34,059 nucleotides of DNA, taken from an uncultured Burkholderiales bacterium. Its GTDB lineage: Bacteria; Pseudomonadota; Gammaproteobacteria; Burkholderiales; Usitatibacteraceae. This document shows positions 13,298 to 34,059 of this stretch, piece by piece (position 1 is the stretch's first letter; every line of letters starts with the position of its first letter). The stretch lies in NCBI GenBank assembly GCA_964598005.1, contig CAZRAL010000028.1, positions 1 to 34,059 of the forward strand. Reading direction: 5' to 3'. The notes beneath the pieces are model-generated. The model was not told the DNA's origin. It saw only the letters and a program-made list of their open reading frames with translations, and ran no database searches. The position numbers and the translations under genes are program-made.

Positions 13298-13331
13298 GAA
13301 AAGTAATAAGGCTAAAAGATAAAACTAAAAA

Positions 13332-14968: not shown

Positions 14969-15682
14969 CTACGGTTTGCGTAGTATGCCAACAAGCAATA
15001 TGCGGAACGGTGCCAAAAAATGGAAGAAATTGACAGTACGTTCATAAATTATTCCAATGATATAAGTTAACCACATAAAACGAAGATACTCTGGGCGCCC
15101 TTCAATCAATTTAATTTTTTCAACTAGTAACCCGGCCGTAGTTGCATGACGTTTCACTGTCACCATCGTATTAGCTAAATATTGTGTTGGAAACGTATCT
15201 ATTTCTGCACGGCCACGTTTGCGATTAACCCATTGATGAAAACTGTAGGGTGTTATACGTGCAATTGTGGGCATGTAATGCCACTTGTTTGGAGTTTTAA
15301 ATATGAAGACGCCGCCAGGTTTTAAGACACGCTGAATTTCACAGAATACTGTTACAGGATCCGGGAGATGTTCTACGACATTATCTGCAAATACAACATC
15401 AAAATAAGCACTATCATAGGGGATGCTGTTAGCATTAGCTATACGACCTTCATCAAGCATAGGATTATTCAGTACTCGCGGGTCTAAATCAACCCCACAA
15501 ACACGTTTAACCAACCCCTTGAAATTCATTTGTTCGACAATGCCTGCTCCTGCACCTAAATCTAAAATCACACTATCGTCACATAAGTACTGAAGCAACG
15601 TATCCCTAAACAATTGATCATCCCAGTTTCGATCAAAATGCGGATACCATGCCTTATCAATTCGTGTAATCAAAGTGTTCAT
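14969..15682 (-). CDS. Class I SAM-dependent methyltransferase
   Basis: ILDLGAGAG (motif I), VFADNVVEHL, and LKPGGVFIF (motif III). Confidence 0.65.
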   Translation of the reverse strand: MNTLITRIDKAWYPHFDRNWDDQLFRDTLLQYLCDDSVILDLGAGAGIVEQMNFKGLVKRVCGVDLDPRVLNNPMLDEGRIANANSIPYDSAYFDVVFADNVVEHLPDPVTVFCEIQRVLKPGGVFIFKTPNKWHYMPTIARITPYSFHQWVNRKRGRAEIDTFPTQYLANTMVTVKRHATTAGLLVEKIKLIEGRPEYLRFMWLTYIIGIIYERTVNFFHFLAPFRILLVGILRKP

Positions 15683-17802
15683 TTTAAAGCTTCCTCAAGC
15701 TTTATAGAGACGCGACTGACTTCAATCAATTCACTTGGTTTGATGAGCAGTTCGTTACCTTTACGGATGGCATCCACAAACATCTGTACACAGGCTTGTA
15801 CACCTTTGTCTTGTCGCCAAAGATTCATCTTATTGAATTTTTTCCAGCCCCAGCCTTTTAGTTTTATAAAATTATCAAGCTGTAATACTCGTCCTGCACA
15901 AAAAACTTCCAGTCGTTCCTTGGGGAAACTTTGATGGCCATTAGCTAAATAATGAATGGCTCCCACGCTGCCATTTTCAAATTGCAATATTATTATTACT
16001 TTATCAGCAGTTATTTGCAGAGAAGGGTGACGTCCTAACATAACCGCGGAATAGTGCATAATTGGGGCACCAGCTAAATGACGTAAAAGATCGACAAAGT
16101 GACAAGCCTCCCCGATGATTCGGCCACCGCCAATAGCCTTATCTTGCGTCCAATGGATTGGAGGAATCGCTCCGGCGTTAACGGTGACTATGAAATTCTT
16201 AGGCTCAATTACGGTATCAAGCAACGCTTTCATTTTTATTACTTGGGGGGCAAAGCGGCGGTTAAAACCAACCATTAAATGCTGTTTTGGACATGTCGCC
16301 AGTATCGATTCAATTTTTCCAAGTTCTTGCATATTTAAGCAGAGCGGTTTTTCTACAAACACATGTTTACCCGCGCGCAGAGCTTGCAATACCAAATTGG
16401 CATGACTATCGTGCCTTGTGGCGATTACTACAGTATTTATCGCCTTATTAGTGAGCATCGCATTGAGGTCAGTTGACATTTGTATAAAATCAAACTTATC
16501 CCCATAGTGGAGCCCATTGATTCCCCCGGTTGTTACCACCGTATGCAATGTTGCGCCTGCTATTTTAAATGCCGGCATTAACATACGCCCTGCGTAATTG
16601 CCAGCACCAACAAAACCGGCACATACAGGTTCTGGTGTACCGGATAATGTATTGAGGACTACCGTACGCTGCATTAGCAGGTCAGTAAGTTGCTTTGCTG
16701 TATAAATTATTAGGATACCTAGCGACTGGGTTGGGCTACTTAATAATGAATATGCTTTTTCCGCATCGTCCAAATTGAAACGATGGGAGATTAGCGGTTC
16801 AACATCAATCGCACCAGTTGCCATTAGGTCCAGTACAGCTTCGAAATTACGCTGTTCAGTCCAACGCACAAATCCTATTGGGTAATCATGCCCGCCTTCT
16901 TCATAAGCAGGGTCGTATCGGCCAGGACCATATGAGCAGGAAACTTGAAAACTCAATTCCTTTTCATAAAAATCAGCGCGCGACAACTCAAGGCCCGTAA
17001 CACCAACCAATACAATGCGTCCTCGCTGCCGGCACATTTTGGCCGCCTGGCTTACGGGGTCATTGCTTTTGGTTGAAGCCGTAATAATGACTGCATCTAC
17101 CCCTCGCCCCCGCGAAAATGCGACTGCCATATCCAGGGGATTGGCCCCTTTTGAAACATCAACTATTTCGGCACCAAAACGTTGTGCGAGCGCCAAACGC
17201 GAAGCATCCAAATCAATTCCCAATACCCTGCAACCCTGTGCCTTGAGCATCTGTACGGTCAACAATCCAATTAGCCCCAAGCCTGTGACCACTACACATT
17301 CACCTAATGTGGGATTGACCAAACGAATGCCCTGCAAACCAATAGCGGCTAACACCGTGAAAGCAGCATGTTCGTCGGAAACGACGTCTGGAATACATGC
17401 ACACAGATTCTGAGGTACACAGACTATCTCGGCATGTTTACCGTTAGATACGACTCGATCACCAAGTGTAAAATCACTGACACCGCTGCCAATTTCAGCA
17501 ACAACACCGACATTGCAATAGCCCAATGCGAGTGGTTGGTCGAGTTTGCTCTGCACTGCTTCCAATGTGGTTAACAGCCCATCTGTACGAATCTTGTCGA
17601 GCACTTGGCGTACTTTGTCGGGTTGTTGTCGTGCTTTGTCCAATAAATTGGCTTTGCCAAATTCAACCAGCATTCGTTCAGTCCCTGCAGACACAAGCGT
17701 CCGAGATGTTTGGATTAGGAGTTGGCCAGGCTTTACATTCGGCACCGAAATTTCAGCCACTTCCGTGGTGCCGGTTTTGAGGCTTTGTAATATCTGTTTC
17801 AT
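15679..17802 (-). CDS. Bi-domain oxidoreductase: N-terminal zinc/MDR-type alcohol dehydrogenase fused to C-terminal Gfo/Idh/MocA NAD(P)-oxidoreductase
   Basis: N-terminal half has the GroES-like fold plus VVVTGLGLIGLL Rossmann motif. C-terminal half has GFVGAGNYAGRMLMPAF ... EKP ... GFNRRF of Gfo/Idh/MocA. ATG 17802 (MKQILQS) preferred. The track start at 17826 is a TTG lying inside the IS inverted repeat. Confidence 0.75.
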   Translation of the reverse strand: MKQILQSLKTGTTEVAEISVPNVKPGQLLIQTSRTLVSAGTERMLVEFGKANLLDKARQQPDKVRQVLDKIRTDGLLTTLEAVQSKLDQPLALGYCNVGVVAEIGSGVSDFTLGDRVVSNGKHAEIVCVPQNLCACIPDVVSDEHAAFTVLAAIGLQGIRLVNPTLGECVVVTGLGLIGLLTVQMLKAQGCRVLGIDLDASRLALAQRFGAEIVDVSKGANPLDMAVAFSRGRGVDAVIITASTKSNDPVSQAAKMCRQRGRIVLVGVTGLELSRADFYEKELSFQVSCSYGPGRYDPAYEEGGHDYPIGFVRWTEQRNFEAVLDLMATGAIDVEPLISHRFNLDDAEKAYSLLSSPTQSLGILIIYTAKQLTDLLMQRTVVLNTLSGTPEPVCAGFVGAGNYAGRMLMPAFKIAGATLHTVVTTGGINGLHYGDKFDFIQMSTDLNAMLTNKAINTVVIATRHDSHANLVLQALRAGKHVFVEKPLCLNMQELGKIESILATCPKQHLMVGFNRRFAPQVIKMKALLDTVIEPKNFIVTVNAGAIPPIHWTQDKAIGGGRIIGEACHFVDLLRHLAGAPIMHYSAVMLGRHPSLQITADKVIIILQFENGSVGAIHYLANGHQSFPKERLEVFCAGRVLQLDNFIKLKGWGWKKFNKMNLWRQDKGVQACVQMFVDAIRKGNELLIKPSELIEVSRVSIKLEEALK

Positions 17803-17809
17803 ATTAAAC

Positions 17810-18552
17810 AGGGTCTTAGGAAGCAAACATGTGATTGATACATGCTAACTTCTTGAGATGATTGAGAAAAACAGGTACCTCACACGTTCCAAAATCAGTG
17901 AGGCTAAGTTTCGACAGATTGTGCGCCATTTTTCTCTTGATTTGACCGCCAATGAATGCGCAGCATTGACGGGTATTTCCGTGCGTAGCATCAATTCGAT
18001 TTACCTGCGCATGCGTCAGCGTACGGTGACTTAGTGCACTGAGCATTCGCCTTTTTCTGGCGAGCGTGAAGCCGATGAGTCTTACTTTGGTGCTCGTCGT
18101 GTGCGTGGTAAACGGGGCCGTGGAGCGGCTGGCAAAACGATCGTCTTTGGTCTGCTCAAACGCGGCGATCATGTCTACACAGAGATCGTGCCTAATGCCT
18201 CCAAAGCCACGTTGCAAACCATTATTAGAGGTAAAGTTGACCCTCACATCCATACTGACAGCTGGCGTGGTTATGACGGGTGGGTCGATATTGGCTTTGA
18301 TAAGCATTTTCGGGTCAATCACGGCAACAATGAATTCGTCAAAGGCTCCAATCATGTCAACGGCATTGAGTCTTTCTGGAGTTTTGCCAAGCGCAGATTG
18401 GCCAAATTCAATGGTATTGCCAAACACACTTTTGCTTTGCATTTGAAAGAGTGTGAGTTCCGCTTCAACCATCGTCATGACAACCTCTATCTGGCCCTGC
18501 TAAGGTTATTTAGAAATAACCCTCTATAATCAAGTTTGCTTCCTAAGACCCT
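17810..18552 (+). mobile_element. IS1595-family (IS1016-group) insertion sequence, 743 bp, with perfect 19-bp terminal inverted repeats AGGGTCTTAGGAAGCAAAC
   Basis: 17810-17828 equals the reverse complement of 18534-18552. IRs extend imperfectly to about 27 bp. Flanked by AAAC on both sides (17806-17809 / 18553-18556). Encodes an IS1016-like transposase. Confidence 0.8.
17858..18529 (+). pseudogene. IS1016-like (IS1595 family) transposase interrupted by an in-frame TAG at 18032-18034
   Basis: N part 17858-18031 (MIEKNRYLTRSKISEAKFRQIVRHFSLDLTANECAALTGISVRSINSIYLRMRQRTVT*) and C part (..EHSPFSGEREADESYFGARRVRGKRGRGAAGKTIVFGLLKRG ... WRGYDG ... GIESFWSFAKRRLAKFNGI ... HLKECEFRFNHR) are in one frame (18032-17858 = 174 = 58x3). 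Matches IS1016 transposase from memory. Confidence 0.7.
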
Positions 18553-18559
18553 AAACGGT

Positions 18560-19327
18560 TTAGCTGGGCAGTAAAGCTTCTTTTCCTGCGCGGTTGGGGT
18601 AATTAATCAACACTGCACGATACTTACCCTTAAAAACAAAAAGGCTCCCAGCGGCAGCGCCAATAATACCGTAACGATTGATCAGTTCTTTTAAATCATC
18701 AAATGAACCTGCTCCGCCGAGCACAGTCAGTGGCAGATGAACCGCCTGCCGAACCAGCTCAACCAAGTCCAGGTCATAACCTTTCATCTTGCCATCCCGA
18801 TCCACCGAGTTGACCACTATCTCGCCTGCGCCTAACTCCGCCATTTGACGCGCGAATTCAACAGGATTAAGCCCTGTTCGGCGAGAACCATTGTGCGTTA
18901 CCACTTCGTAGCGACGAAGCAAACTCGTTTTCTTAATATCAATTACTACGACCACGCTCTGACTACCAACCCGCGAGGCAGCATCAGAAATGAGTTTCGG
19001 GTTCTCCACCGCCGCCGAACTGACGGCAACCTTTTCGACGCCAAGACTGATGATCTTCTCTATCTGCGCCACCGTACGTACGCCACCTCCATAACAAAGC
19101 GGCGCCCTGCATTCCGAGGCAAGGTGTGAAATCATCTGGTAGTCTGGTTCGGCACCCTTGACTGTAGCATCAATATCGACCACCACCAGTTCATCAACCT
19201 CTTTCTCATTGTAAATCCGAACCGCATTGATCGGATCCCCCACGTACTTCGGGTTGCCAAAATTAACGGTCTTGACGAGGCCGCTGTTGTGAACTAACAA
19301 ACAGGGTATCAGTCGGGGACGTAGCAT
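18560..19327 (-). CDS. wbuZ: HisF-like cyclase subunit (imidazole-glycerol-phosphate-synthase paralog; WbuZ-type)
   Basis: MLRPRLIPCLLV ... VDELVVVDIDA ... GGGVRT ... VSSAAVENP match the HisF (beta/alpha)8 signature. Start ATG 19327 overlaps the hisH-like stop. Confidence 0.75.
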   Translation of the reverse strand: MLRPRLIPCLLVHNSGLVKTVNFGNPKYVGDPINAVRIYNEKEVDELVVVDIDATVKGAEPDYQMISHLASECRAPLCYGGGVRTVAQIEKIISLGVEKVAVSSAAVENPKLISDAASRVGSQSVVVVIDIKKTSLLRRYEVVTHNGSRRTGLNPVEFARQMAELGAGEIVVNSVDRDGKMKGYDLDLVELVRQAVHLPLTVLGGAGSFDDLKELINRYGIIGAAAGSLFVFKGKYRAVLINYPNRAGKEALLPS

Positions 19328-19941
19328 CAGCCAAGCTCCGCGAAATTCTTCAACAGGCGGACACCCCACTGGTGGCTTTTTTCCGGATGGAATTGCGTTC
19401 CATATACATTTCTGGAGCGTACCGCTGAAGTGAATATCAAGCCATAGTTGGAAGTAGCCAGGATATTTTCTTCGTGGTCCGGTTTCATATAATAGGAATG
19501 CAAAAAATAGTAGCGGGGTGCGTCCAACCCAGAAAAAAGGCTGTCAGTTCTTAAGGGGGTCGCATCGTTCCACCCCATATGCGGAAGGTGGGTCTTGCCC
19601 TCAAGCAAACGGGTATCGAATTTGACGACCGTTGCATCAATCCACCCCAAACCCGGCAGCCTTCCCTCTTCACTAGAGCGAGCCATCATCTGCATACCCA
19701 CGCAAATGCCCAATACCGGTTTCCCCCCCCCAAGGACTTCTTCGTCCAGGGCTTCACGCAAGCCCGATTCCTGGAGACGGGTCATTGCCCAGTCAAATGC
19801 GCCGACGCCAGGAAGAATGATCCGGGAAGCCCTGTGTAAATCATTCTCGGTACGTGCCGCCCATGCCTCAATTCCGAGATGTCGATAAATATTGGCAAAA
19901 GCCTGAATGTTGCCTAGGCCATAATCAACCAGCGCAATCAT
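19327..19941 (-). CDS. wbuY: HisH-like class-I glutamine amidotransferase subunit (WbuY-type)
   Basis: MIALVDYGLGNIQAF ... LPGVGAF ... GICVGMQ (catalytic Cys) ... HLPHMGWN ... SYY. Confidence 0.8.
   Translation of the reverse strand: MIALVDYGLGNIQAFANIYRHLGIEAWAARTENDLHRASRIILPGVGAFDWAMTRLQESGLREALDEEVLGGGKPVLGICVGMQMMARSSEEGRLPGLGWIDATVVKFDTRLLEGKTHLPHMGWNDATPLRTDSLFSGLDAPRYYFLHSYYMKPDHEENILATSNYGLIFTSAVRSRNVYGTQFHPEKSHQWGVRLLKNFAELG
19723..19731. repeat. Homopolymeric C9 (G9 on the coding strand) inside the hisH-like gene, currently in frame (encodes GGG in EEVLGGGKPVL)
   Basis: Read directly: ggtttcccccccccaagg. Longest G/C homopolymer seen in the window. Confidence 0.9.
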
Positions 19942-21083
19942 CGCTTGCCGCCAATTTCCAGGCCCATAGCCCGCATTACCCGTGCGCCGTAATCATAAAG
20001 CTGCCGCTGATTTTTGTAATCCTTGTAGGTTTTGTGAGGTAGCTTCATGTAGCTGTTAAGCTCATCCACAGTGATGCCCAGCTTGTTCGCCACAAACTCG
20101 ATTTCCTGAGCAATCGTGGTTTCATCGTAACTAGGCTTCTTGAGGAGCTCGATGGCTTCTTCGCGGGCCATCTGCCCGGTAACAATCAGGCTGGAATACT
20201 GAATGCGGCGAACATCGTATCCAAACCGCTTAGGCAGCCAGTAACTCTCGTAGAATTTCGTAAAACGGGACTCGAAGTGCTTTTGTGAATAAGGCTGCCA
20301 CCCAAAACGATCAATCAAAAGCTGCTTGGCCTCTTCCTTGATGTAGGGCACCATATTCAGCGGGCGGACAACCTTGATACCTTTGAAATATGGCAGCCAC
20401 ACCTTATGCCACAGAATTGATGTCACTGGGAAGGTCTTGAGTGGCCGAGCGCCGAATTGGCGGTGAATATCTCGAAGTTGGCGCGAATCAGATTGGTAAT
20501 ACATCCACTCGATAGGATTGCGAATGCATTCAGTCGACAGATTCGCGCCGGTGAGGATGTATTTGACCTTATGCTGCGTCGCAAATTTGTACATTGTGGC
20601 GAAGAATGCATGATCCTGTGGCGTGTCAATGTGCGGAACGCCGGACTTAAAAAAAGCCAGCTGCAAATCACGCATCTCTTGCCAATCAATTACCTCGGTG
20701 AACAGATCGAGCCCTAGTCCATCGATCAGACGCTCGATGTTATTAACCGCAATTTGCGAGTTCCAGCCTGCATCGACATGGAACACCAGCGGACGCAACC
20801 CCATCTTTTCCTTTGCGATGTAAGTCAGATATGAGCTATCAATTCCGCCGCTCATGCCGATGATGCAGTCAAAATCCTTTCCTCTCCCATCATGTTTGAT
20901 AGCCTCAACTAAGCTGGCAAGCTTTGCTCCACCGCCAACTCCGGTATCCCAGCTAGGCAGAGTGACATTTTTGAAAGTGTTGCAGTGATCACAAACTCCC
21001 TGATCATCAAAAATAATCATTGAGTCCGTCGTGTCCATGACACACGAAGTGCAAATTTGGTAGTTGCGGTCAGTCATATGCAT
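19938..21083 (-). CDS. wbuX: N-acetyl sugar amidotransferase (PP-loop ATP pyrophosphatase; WbuX/PseA-like LPS biosynthesis protein)
   Basis: N-terminal Cys cluster (CTSC ... CDHC) and the GMSGGIDSS PP-loop. Co-located with hisH/hisF-like genes as in the wbuXYZ acetamidino-sugar modules. Confidence 0.75.
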   Translation of the reverse strand: MHMTDRNYQICTSCVMDTTDSMIIFDDQGVCDHCNTFKNVTLPSWDTGVGGGAKLASLVEAIKHDGRGKDFDCIIGMSGGIDSSYLTYIAKEKMGLRPLVFHVDAGWNSQIAVNNIERLIDGLGLDLFTEVIDWQEMRDLQLAFFKSGVPHIDTPQDHAFFATMYKFATQHKVKYILTGANLSTECIRNPIEWMYYQSDSRQLRDIHRQFGARPLKTFPVTSILWHKVWLPYFKGIKVVRPLNMVPYIKEEAKQLLIDRFGWQPYSQKHFESRFTKFYESYWLPKRFGYDVRRIQYSSLIVTGQMAREEAIELLKKPSYDETTIAQEIEFVANKLGITVDELNSYMKLPHKTYKDYKNQRQLYDYGARVMRAMGLEIGGKR

Positions 21084-23299: not shown

Positions 23300-25162
23300 T
23301 TAAAGTCTAGCGCCATAAATTTTCCGCCACAACTCAAACTGCACCAGAGAAAACAAACGCTCTCCGTTGCTTCGCCCTTGATCCTGACCTTTCAGCAATG
23401 AATGTACCGTAGAGGTATCGAACAGGCAGTCTCGGCTCGACAAGGTATCCCAGAACAGTTCCCGGAACGGTCCGGCCTTGAGCCACTCAGCCAATGGAAT
23501 TGAGAAACCCTGCTTTCGCTGTGAATCAAACTCGGGCGGTAGCACCCGCGCAGCAAGCCGTTTAAGTAGTATTTTCCTTTTGCTGACTGTTGCTTTCAGA
23601 TGGGAAGGCACTTGCCCAAAGGCGAACTCGATGATCCGAAGGTCGAGCAACGGTGCCCGCACCTCCAAAGAATTAAGCATGCTGGCCCGATCTACCTTCA
23701 CCAGAATGTCTTCCGCTAAGTAGTCTTGGAAATCCATCCGCGTCGACCGCTGTAGCAAATCTGGTTGGCTTGGAACGCGACCTGCGCAGATGGCCTCGGC
23801 GACAATTGGGTGTCCCGGATGGCCTCGCATCAATCGACTGCGTGTAGTTGCATCGAAATAGTTGGCAATCAAGGGCAGACTGTGGCCTAAGTCCATGTCC
23901 AACCCTTGCAGGTAGTTTCTTCCCTTTAGACCGACTGGCAGCCATTGCTCGGCCACTGCCGAAACACTGTGTCGTAACCAGCTTGGAATATGCGCCAACT
24001 GCTGCTGCATCCACAGTAATCGGCTGTGATGTTTATAGCCACCAAACAGTTCATCGCCGCCATCACCGCCCAAGGCAACGCTGCAGTGCTGGCGTACCAG
24101 ACTACTGACTAGCCAAGTAGGAAACATGGAGGAATCCACCATGGGTTCATCGAACTGGCGCGCAAGAGTAGGCAACAGGTCGACGGTAGTGGGTTCAGCC
24201 ATCATTTCTATATGCTCGGTTCCAAAAAAGCGAGCAATCAGCCGTGCGTGTGGGGTTTCGTCCAGATTGCCGTGTCCAGGAAAACCGATGCTGAAAGTGC
24301 GTACTTGACGTGATCTGCGTACAGCCATAGCTGTGATCAGACTAGAATCGACCCCACCGCTTAGGAGAACACCTACTGGCACATCCGCTACCAACTGCCG
24401 ACCCACTGCATCTTCCAACAGGGACTCCAGTTCATCGAGCAGGGAGGCCTCATTGATTGCTCCCGCAACGGATTGCAACTCCGGCAACTGCCAATAGCGC
24501 CAGACCTTGGTCACACCCTGATGCAGATCAAAAGTCATGGCATGCGCCGGTGGCAGCTTGTGATAACCCAGCAGGATGCACCGATCTCCAGGGACAAAGC
24601 CCATGGTCAAGTAGCAGTCCATGGCCTCCGGGTCGATGCGCCTAGGCAAGCCTGGGTGTGCTAGCAGTGCCTTTAACTCCGAAGCATAGAAAAGCCTTCC
24701 GCGATCAAGTCGATAAAACAGCGGCTTCTCTCCCGTCCGATCACGGGCAAGAAAGAGTCGCTGGTGGCGAGTATCGTAAATGGCAAAGGCAAACATTCCA
24801 TTAAGATGCGAAAGGCAATCTGTACCCCACTCGGCGTAGGCAGCTAAAAGCACTTCGGTATCGCTGTGGGAACGAAATCCATGTCCGCAAAGTTCGAGTT
24901 CATTACGTAACTCAGCGAAGTTGTATATCTCACCATTAAAGACGATGACAATATTCCGAGAATAAAAATGCATAGGCTGATGCCCAAGTGGAGATAAATC
25001 CAAAATGGACAATCTACGATGAGCCATGCCCACACGGGAATCCTCGGACCACCACTCCCCGGCATCATCTGGGCCACGATGTTTCATGGTGTCGCGACCG
25101 ATGCGCAACCAAGAACGATTAGTTTGCCGGTCTATGGAAGCGACACCAACTATACCGCACAT
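23300..25162 (-). CDS. Asparagine synthetase B-like glutamine-dependent amidotransferase (WbpS-type), paralog 1
   Basis: MCGIVG N-terminal nucleophile Cys2. SGGVDSS PP-loop. About 620 aa. Start placed at MCGIVG (25162) rather than the track's 25195. Confidence 0.8.
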   Translation of the reverse strand: MCGIVGVASIDRQTNRSWLRIGRDTMKHRGPDDAGEWWSEDSRVGMAHRRLSILDLSPLGHQPMHFYSRNIVIVFNGEIYNFAELRNELELCGHGFRSHSDTEVLLAAYAEWGTDCLSHLNGMFAFAIYDTRHQRLFLARDRTGEKPLFYRLDRGRLFYASELKALLAHPGLPRRIDPEAMDCYLTMGFVPGDRCILLGYHKLPPAHAMTFDLHQGVTKVWRYWQLPELQSVAGAINEASLLDELESLLEDAVGRQLVADVPVGVLLSGGVDSSLITAMAVRRSRQVRTFSIGFPGHGNLDETPHARLIARFFGTEHIEMMAEPTTVDLLPTLARQFDEPMVDSSMFPTWLVSSLVRQHCSVALGGDGGDELFGGYKHHSRLLWMQQQLAHIPSWLRHSVSAVAEQWLPVGLKGRNYLQGLDMDLGHSLPLIANYFDATTRSRLMRGHPGHPIVAEAICAGRVPSQPDLLQRSTRMDFQDYLAEDILVKVDRASMLNSLEVRAPLLDLRIIEFAFGQVPSHLKATVSKRKILLKRLAARVLPPEFDSQRKQGFSIPLAEWLKAGPFRELFWDTLSSRDCLFDTSTVHSLLKGQDQGRSNGERLFSLVQFELWRKIYGARL

Positions 25163-25194
25163 ATTTTTTACAATTCTTAATTGGTCGGCTATCA

Positions 25195-26223
25195 CTACTC
25201 TTCAATCGCTTTACGAAAGCCTGCAATCATGCGATCGAGAGTTCGATTCCGCGAATATTGAATATATGCATTATGGCCTAATACCTGTACTAGACTTGGA
25301 TTGTTACAAACCCACTCAAGTGCAGTAGTTAGATCATTTTCACTTTCAAGAATAAGTGCATTGTGATTGTGATCCAAATTCATAAACTCAGGACCGTGGC
25401 GTCCTTCGCGCAAGGTTACAACAGGTACACCGTATGCAAAGCTGTGTAACACTCCGAGCCCAACTGGACCTGGGGATATATAAGCATATGCACGGGAGAA
25501 AAGGGTTGCTAACATGGCATGATCCTGAACTGAACCATGAAAAGTAATCTTCTGCGCAACGCCAAGTTCACTTGCAAGCTGTCGAAGCTCACCCTCAAGC
25601 ACACCTCCCCCTACAATATCAAGCACAATATGATCAGCGATACGTCCCTGTAATTCTAAGAATGTGCGAATGATTAAATCAATACGTTTTCTGGACTGCA
25701 ACCTCCCGACAAATAGCAAGCTGCATTTATCTGCATTACTCGTGTCGGAATGATTGGGAACGTGGATCGTATTTGGCGCTACGACGACCTTTGATAGATC
25801 AACCCCACGCTCGGACATGCGAGCAATCTCTTCTTCCCCATACAACAAAATTCGATCTGCCTTCTTCATTAAGAAATCACGAGTTCTATTAGCAAGCCCG
25901 TTAGCACTATAGCGATGACCCCACAAAATCCACTTAGCGTGGCGTTGTCCAACAAAGGGCAGAATATATGCAGGCCACCTCAGATCAAACATTGAGATTA
26001 CAGCGTCAAAATGCTGTCGTGCTTTATAGATCGAAGCAATATTTTGCAAATGAAACGGTCCAACTTTCACTTGTGGAATAATAATTTCAGCATAGTGGCT
26101 GAATATCGCCTCCCCCTCCTTGTTGGCATGCATTACTGTAACTAGATAATGCTTCGTCAATTCATTTATTACTGGGCGACGGTACTCTGTTAAGGCGTCT
26201 TGCAGGATCAAGATCGACTTCAT
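25195..26223 (-). CDS. Glycosyltransferase family 4, about 342 aa
   Basis: GT4 C-terminal domain (LLFVGRLQSRKRIDLI ... GVPVVTLREG). Start at MKSILIL (26223) with AAGGG 7 nt upstream preferred. Track ORF extends to 26331, overlapping the upstream gene. Confidence 0.65.
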   Translation of the reverse strand: MKSILILQDALTEYRRPVINELTKHYLVTVMHANKEGEAIFSHYAEIIIPQVKVGPFHLQNIASIYKARQHFDAVISMFDLRWPAYILPFVGQRHAKWILWGHRYSANGLANRTRDFLMKKADRILLYGEEEIARMSERGVDLSKVVVAPNTIHVPNHSDTSNADKCSLLFVGRLQSRKRIDLIIRTFLELQGRIADHIVLDIVGGGVLEGELRQLASELGVAQKITFHGSVQDHAMLATLFSRAYAYISPGPVGLGVLHSFAYGVPVVTLREGRHGPEFMNLDHNHNALILESENDLTTALEWVCNNPSLVQVLGHNAYIQYSRNRTLDRMIAGFRKAIEE

Positions 26224-26305
26224 TATGGAACCCTTACTTATCAGAATTCCAGATTGTGGCAGCGAGCATCGAATTGTGCATTTCAGATGAACGGTCTCAT
26301 AAAGT

Positions 26306-28228
26306 CTATGCTGTGTCACCTGAAGGTACATCTAGGAACCGCCTAAACCACAATTCCGTACTCAACAAGCGAAACAGCAGTGTGCTATGGTCTCGCTTGC
26401 CCTGACGGTGCGTATCAATGAGTCTTCGCAGGCCAGACTTATCAAATAGTCCACGCTCAAGACTGCGTGTGCTCAGAAGAATATCGACTGCACTTTTGGC
26501 TCCTGTAAACTTCTTGCGGAATTGTGATGTAATCGGTGAGTTGAAACCGAATTTGGTACGGTTATAAAGAATCCAATCGGGCACAAGTCCACACATTGCT
26601 TGTCTGTGGATATATTTGCCTACTCCAAGCTTGATTTTGAAATCACTAGGCAGACTCCATACAAATTCGACCAGCCGGTGATCCAAGAATGGCATACGCG
26701 ACTCAATGCTGTTCGCCATTGAAATGGCATCACCATAATGCAAAAGATTCACCAGACCACCAGAATGTTGACGCCGTAGCGTTTCCGTAACCCACCCTTT
26801 ATCTTCCTCATCTGGCAGTGGCGGATAGTCGCGCATTCGGTCATAGTCACGTAGTGCAGGGCCAAAGGCCTCTGACACTCCTGTCAATTGCTGGTATAGC
26901 ATGGATAACCAAGGAAGGCGATTACTCGCCCCACGTAGCGCCATAAATACACTGTAACGAAGCTTATAGGTTTTGCTATATTCCTCAACTGATGCAAAAG
27001 CTTCTCGGTATCTCCCAGCAGCAATCAGGTCACCGAAACTTTGCCAGATTATGTTGGCGACATAGCCGCCAAGAAGTTCGTCGGCACCTTGCCCTTCAAG
27101 CAACACTGTCACGTGCTTTCGTGCTTTTCTGAGCAGCTGCATCAATGGAAAGACAGCAGGCGAACTGTTCCCACTCTCCAGATGCCAGACGATATGTGAG
27201 AGCTGATTGACAAACTCTGAATAGTCAGTATCGACGACATGTGAGTGGAGCTTTAGTTCATGCGCTACGCGACAAACAGAAGTCGACTCATCAATCGTGT
27301 TGCCGGCCTCAACATATATCGAACGGTTCTGAATGAGTCCCTCTTCCGATGAGAAACGTGATGTGAAGCAATGATGCGGTGCAGGATCAATGTGTTGCAT
27401 CGCATAAACGATCGAGGAAGAATCAAGGCCAGAAGAAAGCGTAACACCTAGCGGTACATCGCTGCGCATCCGAATGTATACAGCATCATGGAACAGTCTC
27501 GCATATTCTTGACGCGCATCTTCGAATGATAGATTTTTAATTATCTGCTGTGGATAATGCCAATAACGTGAAATGTAGATTTTGCCACTACGAATCGAAA
27601 GATTATGCCCAGGCTGAAGACGTTTGACCTTCTTAAACCAAGTTTCGGGGTGTTGCGCGCCAACTGAAGTCCTGCAAAAATTAGAAATTATGTTGTAGTC
27701 AGGTTCTGCGAGTTGGGGAGCATAGGCCAAGATTGCCTTGATTTCTGATGCGAAATAGAACTTCCCGTCGAGCAAAGCATAGTTAAAAGGCTTCTCGCCA
27801 TAACGATCACGGGAGCAAAATAGCGTTCGCTCCAGTCGGTCGTAAATCGCGAAGCCCCACATGCCATTGAAGCGCTGCACACATGCTTCTCCCCAGCGTA
27901 TGTAGGCCTGGAGCAGAACTTCTGCATCACCTAAGGTGTGAAAGGCCACACCAGCGGCAATTAGTTCAGAGCGAAGCTCTAAGTAATTAAATATTTCACC
28001 GTTGAAGACAAGCCAGTAGCGATTATGCGCGATGATCGGCTGGTTGCTGGCATCACTAAGGTCTATAATAGATAATCGAGTGTGGCCGAATAACGCATCG
28101 TTTCCAACTTGCTTCCAGGCCTGTGCATCGGGGCCGCGATGCTTAAGTGCTTCCAGCGCTCGTTTGACTCGACGTTCGTCAAATGATCCAACTCCATCTA
28201 TATTTATAATTCCAAAAATTCCGCACAT
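26306..28228 (-). CDS. Asparagine synthetase B-like glutamine-dependent amidotransferase (WbpS-type), paralog 2, 640 aa
   Basis: MCGIFGI N-terminus. SSGLDSS PP-loop. AsnB C-terminal domain. Confidence 0.85.
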   Translation of the reverse strand: MCGIFGIINIDGVGSFDERRVKRALEALKHRGPDAQAWKQVGNDALFGHTRLSIIDLSDASNQPIIAHNRYWLVFNGEIFNYLELRSELIAAGVAFHTLGDAEVLLQAYIRWGEACVQRFNGMWGFAIYDRLERTLFCSRDRYGEKPFNYALLDGKFYFASEIKAILAYAPQLAEPDYNIISNFCRTSVGAQHPETWFKKVKRLQPGHNLSIRSGKIYISRYWHYPQQIIKNLSFEDARQEYARLFHDAVYIRMRSDVPLGVTLSSGLDSSSIVYAMQHIDPAPHHCFTSRFSSEEGLIQNRSIYVEAGNTIDESTSVCRVAHELKLHSHVVDTDYSEFVNQLSHIVWHLESGNSSPAVFPLMQLLRKARKHVTVLLEGQGADELLGGYVANIIWQSFGDLIAAGRYREAFASVEEYSKTYKLRYSVFMALRGASNRLPWLSMLYQQLTGVSEAFGPALRDYDRMRDYPPLPDEEDKGWVTETLRRQHSGGLVNLLHYGDAISMANSIESRMPFLDHRLVEFVWSLPSDFKIKLGVGKYIHRQAMCGLVPDWILYNRTKFGFNSPITSQFRKKFTGAKSAVDILLSTRSLERGLFDKSGLRRLIDTHRQGKRDHSTLLFRLLSTELWFRRFLDVPSGDTA

Positions 28229-30422: not shown

Positions 30423-31883
30423 TCATGATGTTGGTACATTCTCAACGCGCATATTCAACATACGTGCGCGGATCGCCTGATAACTGCGCCCATAGAGATA
30501 GACCAAAAGAAAATGCAAGGGCCATCCGCCGGACAATAAAACCCGAAAAAAGGATGTATCTGCAAGCATCCAGATGCAGCCAAGTGAAGATAAACACAGT
30601 AGGCGAAGATTAGTTTTTCTCGACCAGCTATTGAATATTGCCAAAGCGATTCCAAGAATCACCCCGATTAGTACGACACCGAAATAACCGGCCGCTGCTA
30701 TTCCATCAGTCGACCAAAATCCACCGGACATATCATATGTATAAAAACCTGCCTGAAAGTGTCCAACAATCTGTCCAATACTAAATTTTTCGTATGGGTA
30801 ATCTATAAACCAGCTGACAGGCCCAAGGTGGGAATAAAATGTGAATGGGTTTTGGTTGTTAACAAAAAAGTCATAGTAATTACCAAGGGTCATCCCGTTT
30901 ATTGAGAAGGCTCTCTTGACTACCTGAGAGAGAACAAGACCGACCAATTCCTCTACTTCTTGACCATAAATTTCTATAAGAAGCAACACGGCTATTATTA
31001 TTATGGCAAAAAGTTTCCCGATATCTTCGGCTAAGATCTTTTCCTTCTTTAGAACAAAATAATGCACTGCATACATGAGCGGAATCAGAAAAACAATAAA
31101 CTTCGATCCGGTAATAAAGAAGCCCATAAGAAACCCCAAAAATCCAAAGTAAAGAATGTGTCTTTGTTTATACATCATGCCGATCGCAACCATTAATGGC
31201 GATATCACCCGAATCAACCATTGGAGTATATAAGCTGGAAGCGTCCTATTTGGGGAGTATTCCGATACGATATCTCTTTGGTCGTAGACATTTGTGATTT
31301 CCACAATCGTAATCACACTCGCGTAAAATATAAAAAGAAAGGCTGATATAAAAAGAAAAATCAAAATTAAATTGATCTCAAATTTTGAGTTCAAGTATCT
31401 TATGCCGGAAGTGAGTCTGTTGTTCAGTGCTAAGATTAGTTCATGACGATATGTCACATGCTTCCATTTTGCGTTCGCTAGACTTTCTGGAATGAATGCA
31501 ATGAGGTAAAGCGAGACGGTCAGGCAGGCTATCAGAAAATACCCGGCATCTGAGGGGAAACCCTGCATTGCGACGATTATTACCGAAGGAACAAAGACGA
31601 AAAAGAAAAGAAACCAAACCACAAATCGCGAATAAAATACTATCGCTCGTGGGTAGGTCGCCGAAAACATGATGCAGCATAGGCTTGCCAAAATCAGGGG
31701 CCCTAAGCTTCGATCGCTATTGAATTCTGGAAACCCTTGATAGCCCCATACCGGAGTCAAGTAATAGTAGTAATTGTAAATATTAACCAGAATATAAATC
31801 AGCGTGATTGCAACCAGCAGCAATCTGCCTTTTTGAATTACGAGGTTCCCCCGGTTTTTCGTCTGCAAAAAAGCGAGATTCAT
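30423..31883 (-). CDS. wzy: Wzy-like O-antigen/EPS polymerase (polytopic membrane protein). The 5' 14 codons are supplied by the adjacent IS3 inverted repeat.
   Basis: Very AT-rich and hydrophobic. At least 10 TM helices with a large loop. Poorly conserved, as expected for Wzy. The ORF start (MNLAFLQTKNRGNL) lies inside IS sequence 31842-31883. Confidence 0.4.
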   Translation of the reverse strand: MNLAFLQTKNRGNLVIQKGRLLLVAITLIYILVNIYNYYYYLTPVWGYQGFPEFNSDRSLGPLILASLCCIMFSATYPRAIVFYSRFVVWFLFFFVFVPSVIIVAMQGFPSDAGYFLIACLTVSLYLIAFIPESLANAKWKHVTYRHELILALNNRLTSGIRYLNSKFEINLILIFLFISAFLFIFYASVITIVEITNVYDQRDIVSEYSPNRTLPAYILQWLIRVISPLMVAIGMMYKQRHILYFGFLGFLMGFFITGSKFIVFLIPLMYAVHYFVLKKEKILAEDIGKLFAIIIIAVLLLIEIYGQEVEELVGLVLSQVVKRAFSINGMTLGNYYDFFVNNQNPFTFYSHLGPVSWFIDYPYEKFSIGQIVGHFQAGFYTYDMSGGFWSTDGIAAAGYFGVVLIGVILGIALAIFNSWSRKTNLRLLCLSSLGCIWMLADTSFFRVLLSGGWPLHFLLVYLYGRSYQAIRARMLNMRVENVPTS

Positions 31884-32779
31884 GCGACCTGTTTTTCCTG
31901 AGACTGCACTGGCGACTTGTAACCGAGGCTCGAATGCCGCTTCTTGCGGTTGTAAAAAACCTCAATATACTCGAAGCTGGCGGCCTTTATGTCGGCATGA
32001 GTGGCATAGCGAATTCCATGTATCCACTCGTTCTTCAAGCTATTAAACCAGCTCTCCGTCGGCGCATTATCCCAACAGTTGCCTTTCCGACTCATCGAGC
32101 AAGTCATGCCATAGGCCTTGAGCTTATCCTGAAAGGCATGAATGGCGTACTGGCTACCCCGGTCAGAATGGTGCATCAGCCCCGCTATCGGCCGTTTCCT
32201 GAACCAGGCTATAGTTAGCGTATCGATCACGAGGTCCGCTGTCATGTGCGGTTTCAGCGACCAGCCGACTATTTCGCAGTTGAACAGGTCAAGCACGATA
32301 GCCAGATACAGCCAGCCTTCATCGGTCCACAGGTAGGTTATGTCCGATTCCCAGACCTGATTCGGCACCGACGGCGTGAAGTTCCTGTCCAGCAGGTTCT
32401 CCGCCACCGGCAGGCCATATTTCGAGTCCGTCGTCATTTGGTAGCGCCGCTTGTGGCAGGCACGAATGCTGTTGTCGCGCATCAATCGCTCAACCCGTTC
32501 CTTTGCCGGTCGGATATACCCGGCCACGCAGCTCGCACACCATACGCGGGCTGTCGTAAGCGCCTTTGACTTCGCTATGAATGGATTCGATCAGCGCCAG
32601 CATTTGCTGGTCAGAGAGTCGCTTGCGATTAGGTGTGCCACCACGCATCCATGTACGATAACCACTGATGCTGACATTGAGCACGTCACACATTTCAGCT
32701 AGCGAGTATGATTGGCTTTGCTCGGCAATCTAGGCGTACCTCACAGTACACCTCTTGCAAAGTACGCCGTCGCTTTTTT
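31880..32779 (-). pseudogene. IS3-family transposase OrfB, frame-disrupted beyond the programmed -1 site
   Basis: Three frames are needed: -1 frame from the slippery site stops after 11 codons (ATAYFARGVL*); N-terminal OrfB segment IAEQSQSYSLAEMCDVLNVSISGY ... ELRGR lies in the +1 frame (32729-32490); DDE core (RVERLMR ... VWESDITY ... HSDRGSQY ... NAPTESWF) lies in the -1 frame (32527-31880). Confidence 0.65.
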
Positions 32780-33030
32780 AGGATTTCATTCCCCCGCTTC
32801 AACCGCAGATTTTCACCGCGCAGCCTTGAAAGCATCATTTCATCCGGGGTCACGATTGGGCCACCAGGCCCGCTGAGTCTGCCTTTCGCCGCCGCCTTGA
32901 TCCAGTTGTGCAAAGTCTGGTCGCTCAGCCCCACTTCTTTGCATACCCTGCTGACGTTTTGTCCATCATGGATCCGCTTGCCCGCCAGTTCCTTGAATTC
33001 AATTGTGTATGATTGCCTCGGTATTTTCAT
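32695..33030 (-). CDS. IS3-family transposase OrfA (HTH)
   Basis: QSYTIEFKELAGKRIHDGQNVSRVCKEVGLSDQTLHNWIK HTH. Slippery heptamer A AAA AAG at 32779-32773 near the 3' end. The -1 frame after it reads ATAYFAR, the conserved OrfAB junction. Confidence 0.8.
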   Translation of the reverse strand: MKIPRQSYTIEFKELAGKRIHDGQNVSRVCKEVGLSDQTLHNWIKAAAKGRLSGPGGPIVTPDEMMLSRLRGENLRLKRGNEILKKRRRTLQEVYCEVRLDCRAKPIILAS

Positions 33031-33098
33031 GTTCTGCCTTTCATTTGTGATGTCAATTTTAGATCACCCTTGGCAGACGAAAAACCGGGGGAACCTCA

Positions 33099-33361
33099 AA
33101 ATACGACCGAAGCGCTTTTTGTCGATTGCTTTCTTTAGGAGTTGAAGAATTGGATTTAGTCGATTTTGTTTGACAACAAAAAGGAATACGCCCACTTTGT
33201 CACAAGCCTCGACCATACGAAGGTCACCCTGCCAATATATTACCACGGGCTTTTCTGTCATCACATGAAAAACAGCTGTAGCGGCTTGAATAGTTTGCTT
33301 AGAATGTAAACCAGATGGTGTAGCAAGAACGATGACATCGGCTTCTATGCTTGAAGCATTT
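33099..33361 (-). pseudogene. Internal fragment of a Gfo/Idh/MocA-family NAD-dependent sugar oxidoreductase (WbpB-like), truncated at both ends by IS elements
   Basis: DVIVLATPSGLH ... HVMTEKP ... LRMVEACDKVGVFLFVVKQNRLNPILQLLKKAIDKKRFGRIL is a conserved block that normally spans roughly residues 60-150 of such proteins. Upstream it is stopped by TGATGA at the edge of the second IS. Downstream it abuts the IS3 end at 33098. Confidence 0.6.
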
Positions 33362-33431
33362 CATCAAAATGTGAAGTTGAAGTCACCCCCATTTCACGGA
33401 CACCTTATTGTTCTTTCAGAAGGAGTCCGAA

Positions 33432-34043
33432 ATGTCCAAACCGTACATCCGCAAACCGCCCTATCCGGCGCAATTTCGAGAACAGATGATTGAGCTGGTT
33501 CGCGCGGGGTGCAAGCCCGGCGAATTGACCAAGGAGTATGGCTGCCATGTCACCAGTATCCTGAACTGGATAGGCCAGGCCGATGGAGCGACCGGTGTCG
33601 TGCCAACCCAGGCCAGTGCGCTCAGTGCCAGTGAACGCCAGGAGCTCATCGAGCTGCGTCCCCAGTTGCGCCAAGTCCAGATGGAACAAGATATCCTTGC
33701 AAAGGCTACGGCCTGGTTTGCCAACAACGGCGACAACACGTTCACCCCCGTCTACGCGGAGCTGCAAGACGCAGGCATGGTGGCCAGCCGCAAGCGCATT
33801 GCCCGTTTGATGCGACACGAGCAGATGCGTGGAGTCAGTCGCAGGCGCAGCTTCTGCGTGACTGAGCGAGATGTCCGGCATCGCCCGGCACCGGACTTGG
33901 TGAATCGTGAGTTTGTGGCCACCGACATCAACCAGTTGTGGGTGGCCGACATGACCTACATCCCGACCTGGACGGGATTGCTGTACCCGGCCATGGTTAT
34001 TGATCCGAGATTTTCCATTAGGCTGGTCCCATTGCAGAGCTAA
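33432..34043 (+). CDS. IS3-family transposase with OrfA and OrfB fused in one frame (internal deletion derivative). C-terminus anomalous or partial.
   Basis: AGGAG RBS 7 nt before ATG 33432. OrfA HTH (MSKPYIRKPPYPAQFREQMIELVRAGCKPGELTKEYG), ATAWFA junction motif, then directly KRIARLMR ... DINQLWVADMTYIP (first catalytic Asp). The OrfB N-terminal segment of about 50 aa expected between them is absent. Ends ...VIDPRFSIRLVPLQS* at 34043, deviating from the conserved VIDLFSRxVVGW. Confidence 0.55.
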   Translation: MSKPYIRKPPYPAQFREQMIELVRAGCKPGELTKEYGCHVTSILNWIGQADGATGVVPTQASALSASERQELIELRPQLRQVQMEQDILAKATAWFANNGDNTFTPVYAELQDAGMVASRKRIARLMRHEQMRGVSRRRSFCVTERDVRHRPAPDLVNREFVATDINQLWVADMTYIPTWTGLLYPAMVIDPRFSIRLVPLQS

Positions 34044-34059
34044 GGCGAGTAAATGGGCT

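Follow-up and report, generated by a model that had tools for sequence, protein, structure and literature searches.

What does a gene encode when its first codons belong to an insertion sequence (IS), and how did the two come to be joined? The question is raised by a 34,059-nucleotide stretch of DNA (the window, contig CAZRAL010000028.1 of assembly GCA_964598005.1, from an uncultured Burkholderiales bacterium), in which an ORF for a Wzy-like polymerase runs into an IS that is bordered on its other side by a piece of a dehydrogenase gene. The reading that we prefer, with a probability of about 0.8, is that two originally non-adjacent segments were brought together in a rearrangement involving an IS3-family element, and that this element has since decayed, leaving the wzy frame open into it. 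The features concerned are listed in Table 1, where the first IS is the element next to wzy and the second IS the one at the contig end.

Table 1. Features of the wzy-IS-dehydrogenase region, with positions in the window
Feature	Position	Strand	Details	Basis
Wzy-like ORF (oligosaccharide repeat-unit polymerase-like)	30423..31883	-	486 aa; codons 1-14 IS-derived, 15-486 native	ORF list
In-frame TTG, codon 21 of the Wzy-like ORF, candidate alternative start	31823..31825	-	immediately ahead of the first membrane helix, within native sequence	
IS-derived 14 codons of the Wzy-like ORF	31842..31883	-	MNLAFLQTKNRGNL	sequence
First IS, decayed IS3-family (IS407-like) element	31841..33098	-	1257-1258 bp	repeats, transposase profiles, alignment to intact relative L012
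Transposase-distal inverted repeat of the first IS	31841..31866	-	tip ...AACCTCG, not ...AACCTCA	
orfB of the first IS	31880..32744	-	in two frames	tblastn of intact OrfB against the window; DNA alignment
orfA of the first IS	32695..33030	-	111 aa, over-long	A6G at 32779-32773 against A7G in L012
Transposase-proximal inverted repeat of the first IS	33073..33098	-	canonical TG tip, TGAGGTTCCCCCGGTTTTTCGTCTGC	
WlbA/WbpB-like UDP-GlcNAcA 3-dehydrogenase fragment (Gfo/Idh/MocA)	33099..33371	-	273 bp; about residues 62-157 of roughly 350	
Second IS, IS3-family remnant	33372..34059 (contig end)	+	left end TGAAGTTGAAGTCACCCCC	transposase profiles, OrfA/OrfB alignment

The first IS is assigned by descent to the IS3 family from its match to the transposase model, its orfA, slippery run and orfB layout, and its terminal repeats. 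The arms of the inverted repeat (31842-31866 and 33073-33097) match at 25 of 25 positions, in agreement with the earlier note on this DNA, which had described an IS3 element with perfect 25-bp repeats, and arms extended to 33 nt are 91% complementary. Between them, on the minus strand, lie pieces of an IS3-family transposase with Pfam matches to HTH_Tnp_1 and rve (PF00665, E 1e-25); the C-terminal 215-aa piece reaches 271.5 bits with NF033516, for which the cut-off is 160, and two other pieces match the same model. The arrangement of an HTH-encoding orfA, an A-rich slippery run and an overlapping orfB is colinear with an intact relative. The element has about 70% nucleotide identity to IS3-family elements of Burkholderiales (Cupriavidus, Burkholderia and Ralstonia), and the closest intact OrfB proteins, of 296 aa, are 80-83% identical. 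The GC content is 0.406 in wzy, 0.531 in the first IS and 0.410 in the dehydrogenase fragment. Given that relatives of the element end in TGAG...CCTCA, its right end is placed at 33098. All four of the relatives compared end in CTCA, and base 31841 would be either a mutated tip or the first base of wzy; the left end is accordingly placed at 31841 if this C is a mutated tip, or at 31842 if the tip base was lost. Of the boundaries first proposed (31842-33098), the right one is retained, while the 'tta' flank given with them implies a start at 31841, a trivial inconsistency.

One A is missing from the slippery run, and orfA is therefore over-long, with orfB in the +1 rather than the -1 frame. Within orfB, TAG replaces TGG at 32732-32730, the frame changes again near 32502-32527, and 27 nt (9 codons) are deleted near 31900, although residues of the DDE region are still recognisable. 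The 33098 end carries TG, and the 31841 end carries CG where four relatives have CA. The element thus lacks an open -1-frame orfB, TG...CA at both tips and a flanking duplication, the features by which we judged competence for transposition, and on this evidence it is a fossil that can no longer move. It is bordered by TTA(C) at its left end and by AAA(T) at its right end, without a 3- or 4-bp duplication, as the first inspection of the sequence had also found. IS407-type elements usually give a 4-bp target duplication. Considering that three related copies at other sites, with tips TG...CA, likewise have no duplication, its absence here is weak evidence by itself. The loss of such duplications through IS-IS recombination or adjacent deletion has been documented (PMC11708052). 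Other copies of the element, which might have fixed its real ends and the length of its duplication, were also sought, and the nearest transposases were only 80-83% identical. A scan of a genome collection with the 25-nt repeat, aimed at an uninterrupted parental locus, returned one solo repeat-like match (L010), without a transposase.

On the other side of the left end, the Wzy-like ORF extends 14 codons into the inverted repeat (31883-31842), as had been claimed. Its ATG (31883-31881) overlaps the stop codon TGA of orfB (31882-31880), forming ATGA, and the same GCATGA with an open frame through the repeat is also present in the intact IS relative. Homologues of the Wzy-like protein (66-81% identity, 481-482 aa) start about 10 codons upstream of the junction, as in the example with MIAINDHRRA before it and SFQKGRLLLV after it, and their N-terminal tails are not conserved, except in being short and basic. 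At the DNA or protein level, wzy can be aligned with five related loci only as far as 31835-31838, which leaves 3-6 nt to the end of the IS. The comparison shows that the native 5' end of the gene has been lost and roughly its first ten codons replaced by IS sequence. The earlier note had proposed this loss, and had named as contrary evidence an intact homologue beginning at the equivalent of residue 15; the homologues instead begin about 10 codons farther upstream. Two other observations at such junctions were set aside. The wzy start in another locus (L003) is not IS-derived as well, its ATG being located some 30 nt past the IS, where the sequence is native and rich in AT, and a gapped 8-nt similarity at the junction (CGTAATTC and CGTCATTC) was rejected as microhomology, being out of frame and possibly due to chance.

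The Wzy-like assignment of the ORF was examined by profile, topology and context. TIGR04370 matches it with 35.4 bits (E 5.9e-9), under the cut-off of 40 bits, and matches 7 of 11 homologues; a Pfam scan of the ORF gave no match. A crude Kyte-Doolittle scan detected about 10-12 hydrophobic segments, in the range of a polytopic membrane protein with about 10-14 helices. The adjoining gene matches PF01943 (Wzx-type flippase), and the cluster includes GT4 glycosyltransferases and a WecA-like initiating transferase, which together form a Wzx/Wzy-type context.

The far side of the first IS is occupied by the dehydrogenase fragment, which matches positions 62-118 of 120 in PF01408 (38.7 bits against a cut-off of 24). 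It aligns to residues 72-156 of PDB 3q2i (E 1.8e-26) and 91-173 of PDB 3q2k (E 6.7e-26), which we take to be the WlbA structures of C. violaceum and B. pertussis, and to PDB 3o9z, whose chain is named wbpB, with an E value of 1.3e-3. One database homologue is named UDP-N-acetyl-2-amino-2-deoxyglucuronate dehydrogenase. WlbA and WbpB are UDP-GlcNAcA 3-dehydrogenases of the ManNAc3NAcA pathway (PMC10622841). The earlier statement that only about residues 60-150 of a Gfo/Idh/MocA dehydrogenase remain agrees with these alignments. The fragment is also internal, as stated, but this requires the second IS, which was not described there and whose end at 33372 forms the upstream cut; a disruption of the frame near 33345 had likewise gone unmentioned. 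Instead of complete N-terminal dinucleotide-binding and C-terminal substrate domains, about 95 of roughly 350 residues are left, and with the frame disruption the fragment cannot encode an enzyme. A protein search with it returned only short matches of at most 64% identity and no parental locus. It is not a copy of the Gfo/Idh/MocA domain in a 715-aa protein of the cluster, to which it is only 29% identical. In the second IS, an internal deletion fuses orfA to orfB; over 284 bp this remnant has 81% nucleotide identity to one on plasmid pBVIE02 of Burkholderia vietnamiensis G4, with homology beginning at 33372.

Since the far side of the first IS is an unrelated truncated gene, its two flanks are not contiguous, which excludes a simple insertion and requires a secondary rearrangement by deletion or recombination. 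The earlier proposal, an insertion followed by an adjacent deletion or by IS-IS recombination, is upheld in this secondary step; a former wlbA-wzy neighbourhood with a deletion in place is unsupported, given that no related locus readable here has wlbA upstream. In these loci wzy is preceded by TviB/TviC-like genes (L006, L007 and L008) or by a different IS (L003-L005), and never by wlbA, and a deletion in situ between neighbouring genes is therefore unproven. A metagenome scan with the Wzy protein for an uninterrupted parental locus found four loci, none with wlbA upstream. As to the order and mechanism of events, we infer that one of the joined segments would have been a wlbA/wbpB-like dehydrogenase gene that was severed near codon 157 and, earlier or later, also near codon 62 by the second IS, while the other would have been a module starting with wzy and wzx, in which the break fell at about codon 10-11 of wzy. 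The join could have arisen by recombination between two copies of an IS, by a deletion next to the IS or by exchange of a gene module at it, candidate mechanisms between which a single contig does not decide. The CG tip is expected from neither transposase action nor homologous recombination between ISs and needs a point mutation or an end clipped by 1 nt. The resulting scar is real and marks the promoter-proximal margin of an O-antigen or exopolysaccharide gene cluster of roughly 24 kb.

Whether the IS-wzy fusion is used, as the earlier note supposed in making polymerase expression dependent on an IS-borne start codon and IS-internal transcription, is a separate matter, and it is a tangible possibility, if short of an even chance, that it is not. 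The chimeric ORF would then be a by-product of ORF calling, with the polymerase silent, decaying or started from the TTG, and the region an accumulation of dead ISs bordering a cluster that lacks the essential precursor gene wlbA. Both ISs and the wlbA fragment are degenerate, and the cluster proteins scanned include no DegT-type aminotransferase (WbpE/WlbC-like); against this, the genome beyond this contig could hold a second copy of wlbA or another pathway. In a scan for promoters and terminators nothing rose above shuffled expectation, and the first IS gave no promoter-like site on the wzy strand; an Rfam scan of 31500-34059 found nothing. One match of the first scan, spanning the wlbA/IS junction (33125-33098, 9 of 12 positions), is not evidence. 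The TTG has a comparable Shine-Dalgarno match, with a predicted anti-SD duplex of -3.2 kcal/mol compared with -4.3 for the IS-borne ATG and -4.2 to +0.6 for the native starts of homologues. Moreover, given that in another locus (L016) the ORF call beside a related IS also starts inside the IS end, reading through into the IS is not itself evidence of use. The chance of an in-frame, stop-free run into the IS is roughly 10-30%.

The Wzy-like ORF and all downstream ORFs of the cluster are intact, and it argues against disuse that neither stops nor frameshifts interrupt the 486 codons of wzy and about 20 genes downstream of it, while the adjacent 1.26-kb IS has gained three disabling lesions. Substitutions specific to the wzy of the window comprise 46 nonsynonymous and 31 synonymous changes, fewer nonsynonymous than the roughly 3:1 expected without constraint. 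The ratio of 1.5 on this branch is nonetheless twice that of the sister lineages (0.7), which fits some relaxation of constraint and is in line with an unused fusion, although it is still well below the neutral expectation.

A rival history for the junction has no in-situ deletion between neighbouring wlbA and wzy genes; recombination at IS copies would have introduced or swapped a wzy-first module (wzy-wzx-methyltransferase-AsnB-GT and further genes), and the piece of wlbA would be a leftover, caught between two ISs, of the older cluster that the module replaced; we consider this rather unlikely, though worth serious attention. The module is found behind varied contexts, with TviB/TviC-like genes in three loci and, in the other three, an IS5-type element together with Wzz and NeuB-type genes that are divergent; ISs are met repeatedly at the module or within it (L003-L005 and L008), and two different ISs cut the wlbA fragment, one at either end. 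However, this fragment shares its low GC content (0.41, with 0.406 in wzy) and its orientation with wzy, which would also fit an origin in the same cluster, and a search for a donor or pre-exchange locus found none.

Returning to the rearrangement by an IS3-family element that we favour, the inverted repeat happens to contain no stop in the wzy frame, which stays open as far as an ATG that shares bases with the stop codon of the transposase gene. A polymerase that is still being made would have to be transcribed through or from the first IS, and its translation would have to start at the IS-borne ATG or at the TTG of codon 21; with the ATG, a basic IS tail of 14 residues would replace an unconserved native tail of about 10 basic residues. 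That the decayed IS has actually been co-opted as the 5' end of the operon, with transcription through the dead transposase gene, re-initiation at ATGA and a working Wzy protein with an IS-encoded basic tail, is unlikely, though far from negligible. In that case an essential cell-surface gene would owe its start codon to a fossil mobile element, and the stop-free frame through the terminal repeat of this IS clade (...QTKNRGNL) would make such fusions recurrent.

It is very improbable that the junctions are an artefact in which the assembler merged two copies of a repeated IS, located in wzy and in wlbA respectively, into a single one with falsely joined flanks. The window does comprise a complete contig of metagenomic origin whose end falls within another IS, and ISs are classic sites of misjoining. 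Yet when Logan contigs from three runs (SRR12762287, SRR12762283 and SRR12762281) were compared with the window, they matched it at 100% and both junctions were reproduced in three separate de Bruijn-graph assemblies. A contig of the first run spans the fragment, the first IS and wzy; one of the second spans both ends of the IS. The whole element with both flanks is crossed by a 26.7-kb Logan contig. The four contigs carrying the orfB piece of the element all have wzy downstream, and the degenerate element has no near-identical copy in the protein database, where the next best match is 83%. Identical junctions in independent assemblies and the constant position of wzy indicate that the first IS is probably single-copy and that the join is not an assembly artefact. 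Scarcely credible, finally, is a simple insertion just upstream of an intact wzy with its native start at or after the junction, for which the TTG at codon 21 could be cited: all close homologues extend about 10 codons past the junction with an ATG of their own, the position equivalent to the TTG is CTT in L006 and L007, and the other flank of the IS is an unrelated truncated gene.

The locus is an example of mobile elements remodelling the edges of surface-polysaccharide gene clusters. It is an ordinary IS-mediated rearrangement, a real but ordinary kind of genome scar that raises no new biological question. Expression of the fusion, if it occurs, would demonstrate that the start codon and N-terminus of a membrane polymerase can come from a dead IS. 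With the loss of wlbA, the pathway, and hence the cluster, may no longer be functional. For annotation, the 486-aa 'protein' has a non-native N-terminus, and this, together with the possible lack of wlbA, calls for caution in predicting serotypes or glycans from a metagenome-derived genome.

Compared with known WlbA/WbpB enzymes (PMC10622841), the dehydrogenase fragment is alike in sequence (E about 1e-26) and differs in its truncation and frame disruption. The junction itself resembles the duplication-less IS copies of the E. coli long-term evolution experiment (PMC11708052), in which a single IS likewise lies between two non-contiguous host segments and the intervening DNA is lost. Unlike those, the event here is old, considering the decay of the element, its mechanism is not reconstructable, and one non-canonical tip is unpredicted by standard models. 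With the IS407-like group of Burkholderiales, the first IS shares a length of about 1.26 kb, the order of orfA, slippery run and orfB, and TG-starting repeats of at least 25 bp; it differs in its +1-frame orfB, nonsense codon, extra frameshift, 9-codon deletion and CG tip. IS interruptions are known in O-antigen genes of E. coli K-12 and other enterobacteria, as is the IS-driven expression of neighbouring genes. As in such IS-interrupted O-antigen and capsule clusters, an IS at or in a surface-polysaccharide gene could here abolish or supply expression; the difference is that an in-frame, IS-encoded N-terminus keeps the ORF open rather than plainly interrupting it.

The element lying between the Wzy-like polymerase gene (wzy) and a fragment of a WlbA/WbpB-like dehydrogenase gene (wlbA) is a decayed IS3-family copy, here termed IS#1, that marks the site of an old rearrangement on one edge of a polysaccharide gene cluster. 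What the earlier note had observed there is confirmed, and its interpretation is partly supported.

ORF and domain searches of the window, which is a complete metagenome-derived contig (34,059 bp), placed in the cluster genes for WecA-like, TviB-like and WecB-like proteins, an epimerase, several GT4 glycosyltransferases, methyltransferases and a Wzx-type flippase. The amidotransferase and methyltransferase genes suggest a repeat unit of acidic sugar with heavy amidation or methylation. The cluster also encodes a 715-aa protein (15679–17826, minus strand) fusing a zinc-type alcohol dehydrogenase domain to a Gfo/Idh/MocA domain, which shares only 29% identity with the wlbA fragment. The most upstream cluster gene encodes a 486-aa polytopic membrane protein, which may reasonably be labelled putatively Wzy-like, given a match to TIGR04370 (oligosaccharide repeat-unit polymerase) just under the 40-bit threshold (35.4 bits, E 6e-9), matches to the same model in 7 of 11 homologues, approximately 10–12 hydrophobic segments and the adjoining flippase gene.

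Coordinates of the main features in the window
Feature	Position	Strand	Remark
Polysaccharide gene cluster	~7.2 kb to 31.9 kb	minus	
WbuX/HisH/HisF2-type sugar amidation set, two AsnB-like amidotransferases and several methyltransferases	18560–21083 and 23300–28228	minus	
Gfo/Idh/MocA dehydrogenase fragment (wlbA)	33099–33371	minus	~residues 62–157
IS#2, second IS3-family remnant	33372–34059 (contig end)	plus	internal deletion fusing orfA to orfB

The arms of IS#1 (31842–31866 and 33073–33097) form the perfect 25-bp inverted repeat that had been noticed, and enclose, on the minus strand, HTH orfA and rve/DDE orfB pieces matching the IS3-family model. Its DNA shares ~70% identity with IS3-family elements from Cupriavidus, Burkholderia and Ralstonia; a search of 5.8 billion sequences returned intact OrfB proteins of 296 aa at 80–83% identity as the nearest, and no near-identical copy of the element. 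As alignment with an intact relative (locus L012), at DNA level and by tblastn, shows, IS#1 has lost one A from the slippery run at 32779–32773 (A6G, against A7G in L012), which leaves orfB in frame +1 instead of −1; it also carries a TAG in place of a Trp codon (32732–32730), a further frame change near 32505 and a nine-codon deletion near the 3′ end of orfB. Judged from these lesions, the copy is a fossil. An isolated terminal repeat of this type (TGAGGTTCCCCCGGTTTTTCGTCTGCC-AAGGGT), without a transposase behind it, lies beside small genes at 6423–6455 of CAMDSO010000174.1 and may represent either a solo end or what is left of a related element.

The structure is not an assembly artefact, since the region recurs at 100% identity in the Logan assemblies from three sequencing runs, a single contig of 26.7 kb covers fragment, IS and wzy, another covers both ends of IS#1, wzy lies downstream in every contig with this orfB piece, and the IS has no known near-identical copy.

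As proposed, the wzy ORF extends 14 codons into the element: its ATG at 31883 overlaps the orfB stop (GCATGA), and MNLAFLQTKNRGNL is read through the repeat before native sequence begins. Homologues from other metagenomes (66–81% identity, 475–482 aa) do not start at the equivalent of residue 15, but have their own ATG ~10 codons upstream of the junction (MIAINDHRRA-SFQKGRLLLVAITL in locus L006, against ...GNL-VIQKGRLLLVAITL in the window), and homology to three of these loci (L006–L008), in DNA and translation, ends at 31835–31838. The gene has thus lost its native start together with all the sequence that preceded it, in agreement with the proposed loss of the 5′ end. The N-terminal tails of homologues are short and basic but otherwise unconserved, and the IS-encoded tail is likewise basic, so that its substitution would plausibly be tolerated.

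On the other side, the surviving dehydrogenase residues are close to the ~60–150 first estimated. The best solved relatives of the fragment (E ~1e-26) are 3q2i and 3q2k, WlbA structures from C. violaceum and B. pertussis. The fragment also matches a chain named WbpB at E 1e-3, and a homologue in the database bears the name UDP-N-acetyl-2-amino-2-deoxyglucuronate dehydrogenase (for the WlbA/WbpB pathway context, see PMC10622841). The fragment has a frame disruption of its own near 33345, and upstream it is bounded by the TG tip of IS#2. Over its first 284 bp, IS#2 shares 81% identity with a remnant carried by plasmid pBVIE02 of Burkholderia vietnamiensis G4, and its reading frame leaves transposase homology after ~34005, just short of the contig end. 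GC content is 0.53 and 0.58 in the two elements, against 0.41 in wzy and the wlbA fragment.

Regarding the origin of this arrangement, plain insertion of IS#1 is ruled out because its flanks are non-contiguous and, as already reported, lack a target-site duplication (TTAC versus AAAT), so a secondary event is needed. IS–IS recombination and adjacent deletion, the two events proposed, are documented causes of duplication-less copies (PMC11708052). The missing duplication is itself a weak criterion here, since none of 3–5 bp is recognizable at three relatives of IS#1 (L011, L012, L014) at unrelated sites with canonical TG...CA tips. In-place deletion of DNA between wlbA and wzy finds no counterpart in the related loci (L003–L008), none of which has wlbA beside wzy; a wzy-first module may instead have been exchanged at IS copies. 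Upstream contexts vary, with TviB/TviC-like genes in L006–L008 and a different IS in L003–L005, where an IS5-type (DDE_Tnp_1) element (7446–8095 in L003) ends ~30 nt upstream of the native ATG of 72%-identical wzy homologues, placing the 5′ boundary of the module repeatedly beside an IS. Within the homologous cluster of L008, another metagenome contig, there is also a segment of IS3-like transposase (~13176–13673) that shares 43% identity with the IS#1 orfB. Relatives of IS#1 terminate 5′-TGAG...CCTCA-3′; its end at 33098 is canonical, and the end beside wzy reads ...CCTCG, base 31841 being either a mutated IS tip or the first base of wzy to survive. This CG tip is not what transposase action or homologous recombination would leave, and it needs a later point mutation or an end clipped by 1 nt.

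On use of the chimeric gene, the sequence evidence points both ways. In favour of use, wzy and ~20 downstream genes are intact beside an element that has gathered three disabling lesions, and window-specific wzy substitutions (46 nonsynonymous to 31 synonymous) fall well below the ~3:1 expected without constraint. On the opposing or neutral side, the ratio in sister lineages is only half as high, wlbA is destroyed, a promoter scan found no promoter-like sites above shuffled expectation, and Shine–Dalgarno matches are similar for a TTG at codon 21 (−3.2 kcal/mol) and the IS-borne ATG (−4.3 kcal/mol).

A relative of IS#1 has a common left flank in five contigs (L014–L018), its right flank differing in L016. 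A called 202-aa gene in L016 (1602–2207) starts at an ATG ~10 codons inside the IS repeat, a second case of a truncated host ORF with an IS-borne start. With the frame through the terminal repeat stop-free in three of four relatives, this case indicates that in-frame extension into the element is a common accident, a further point against use or neutral to it. The IS–wzy junction is an event of a well-known type at a new site; its interest is low short of proof that the fusion is expressed.
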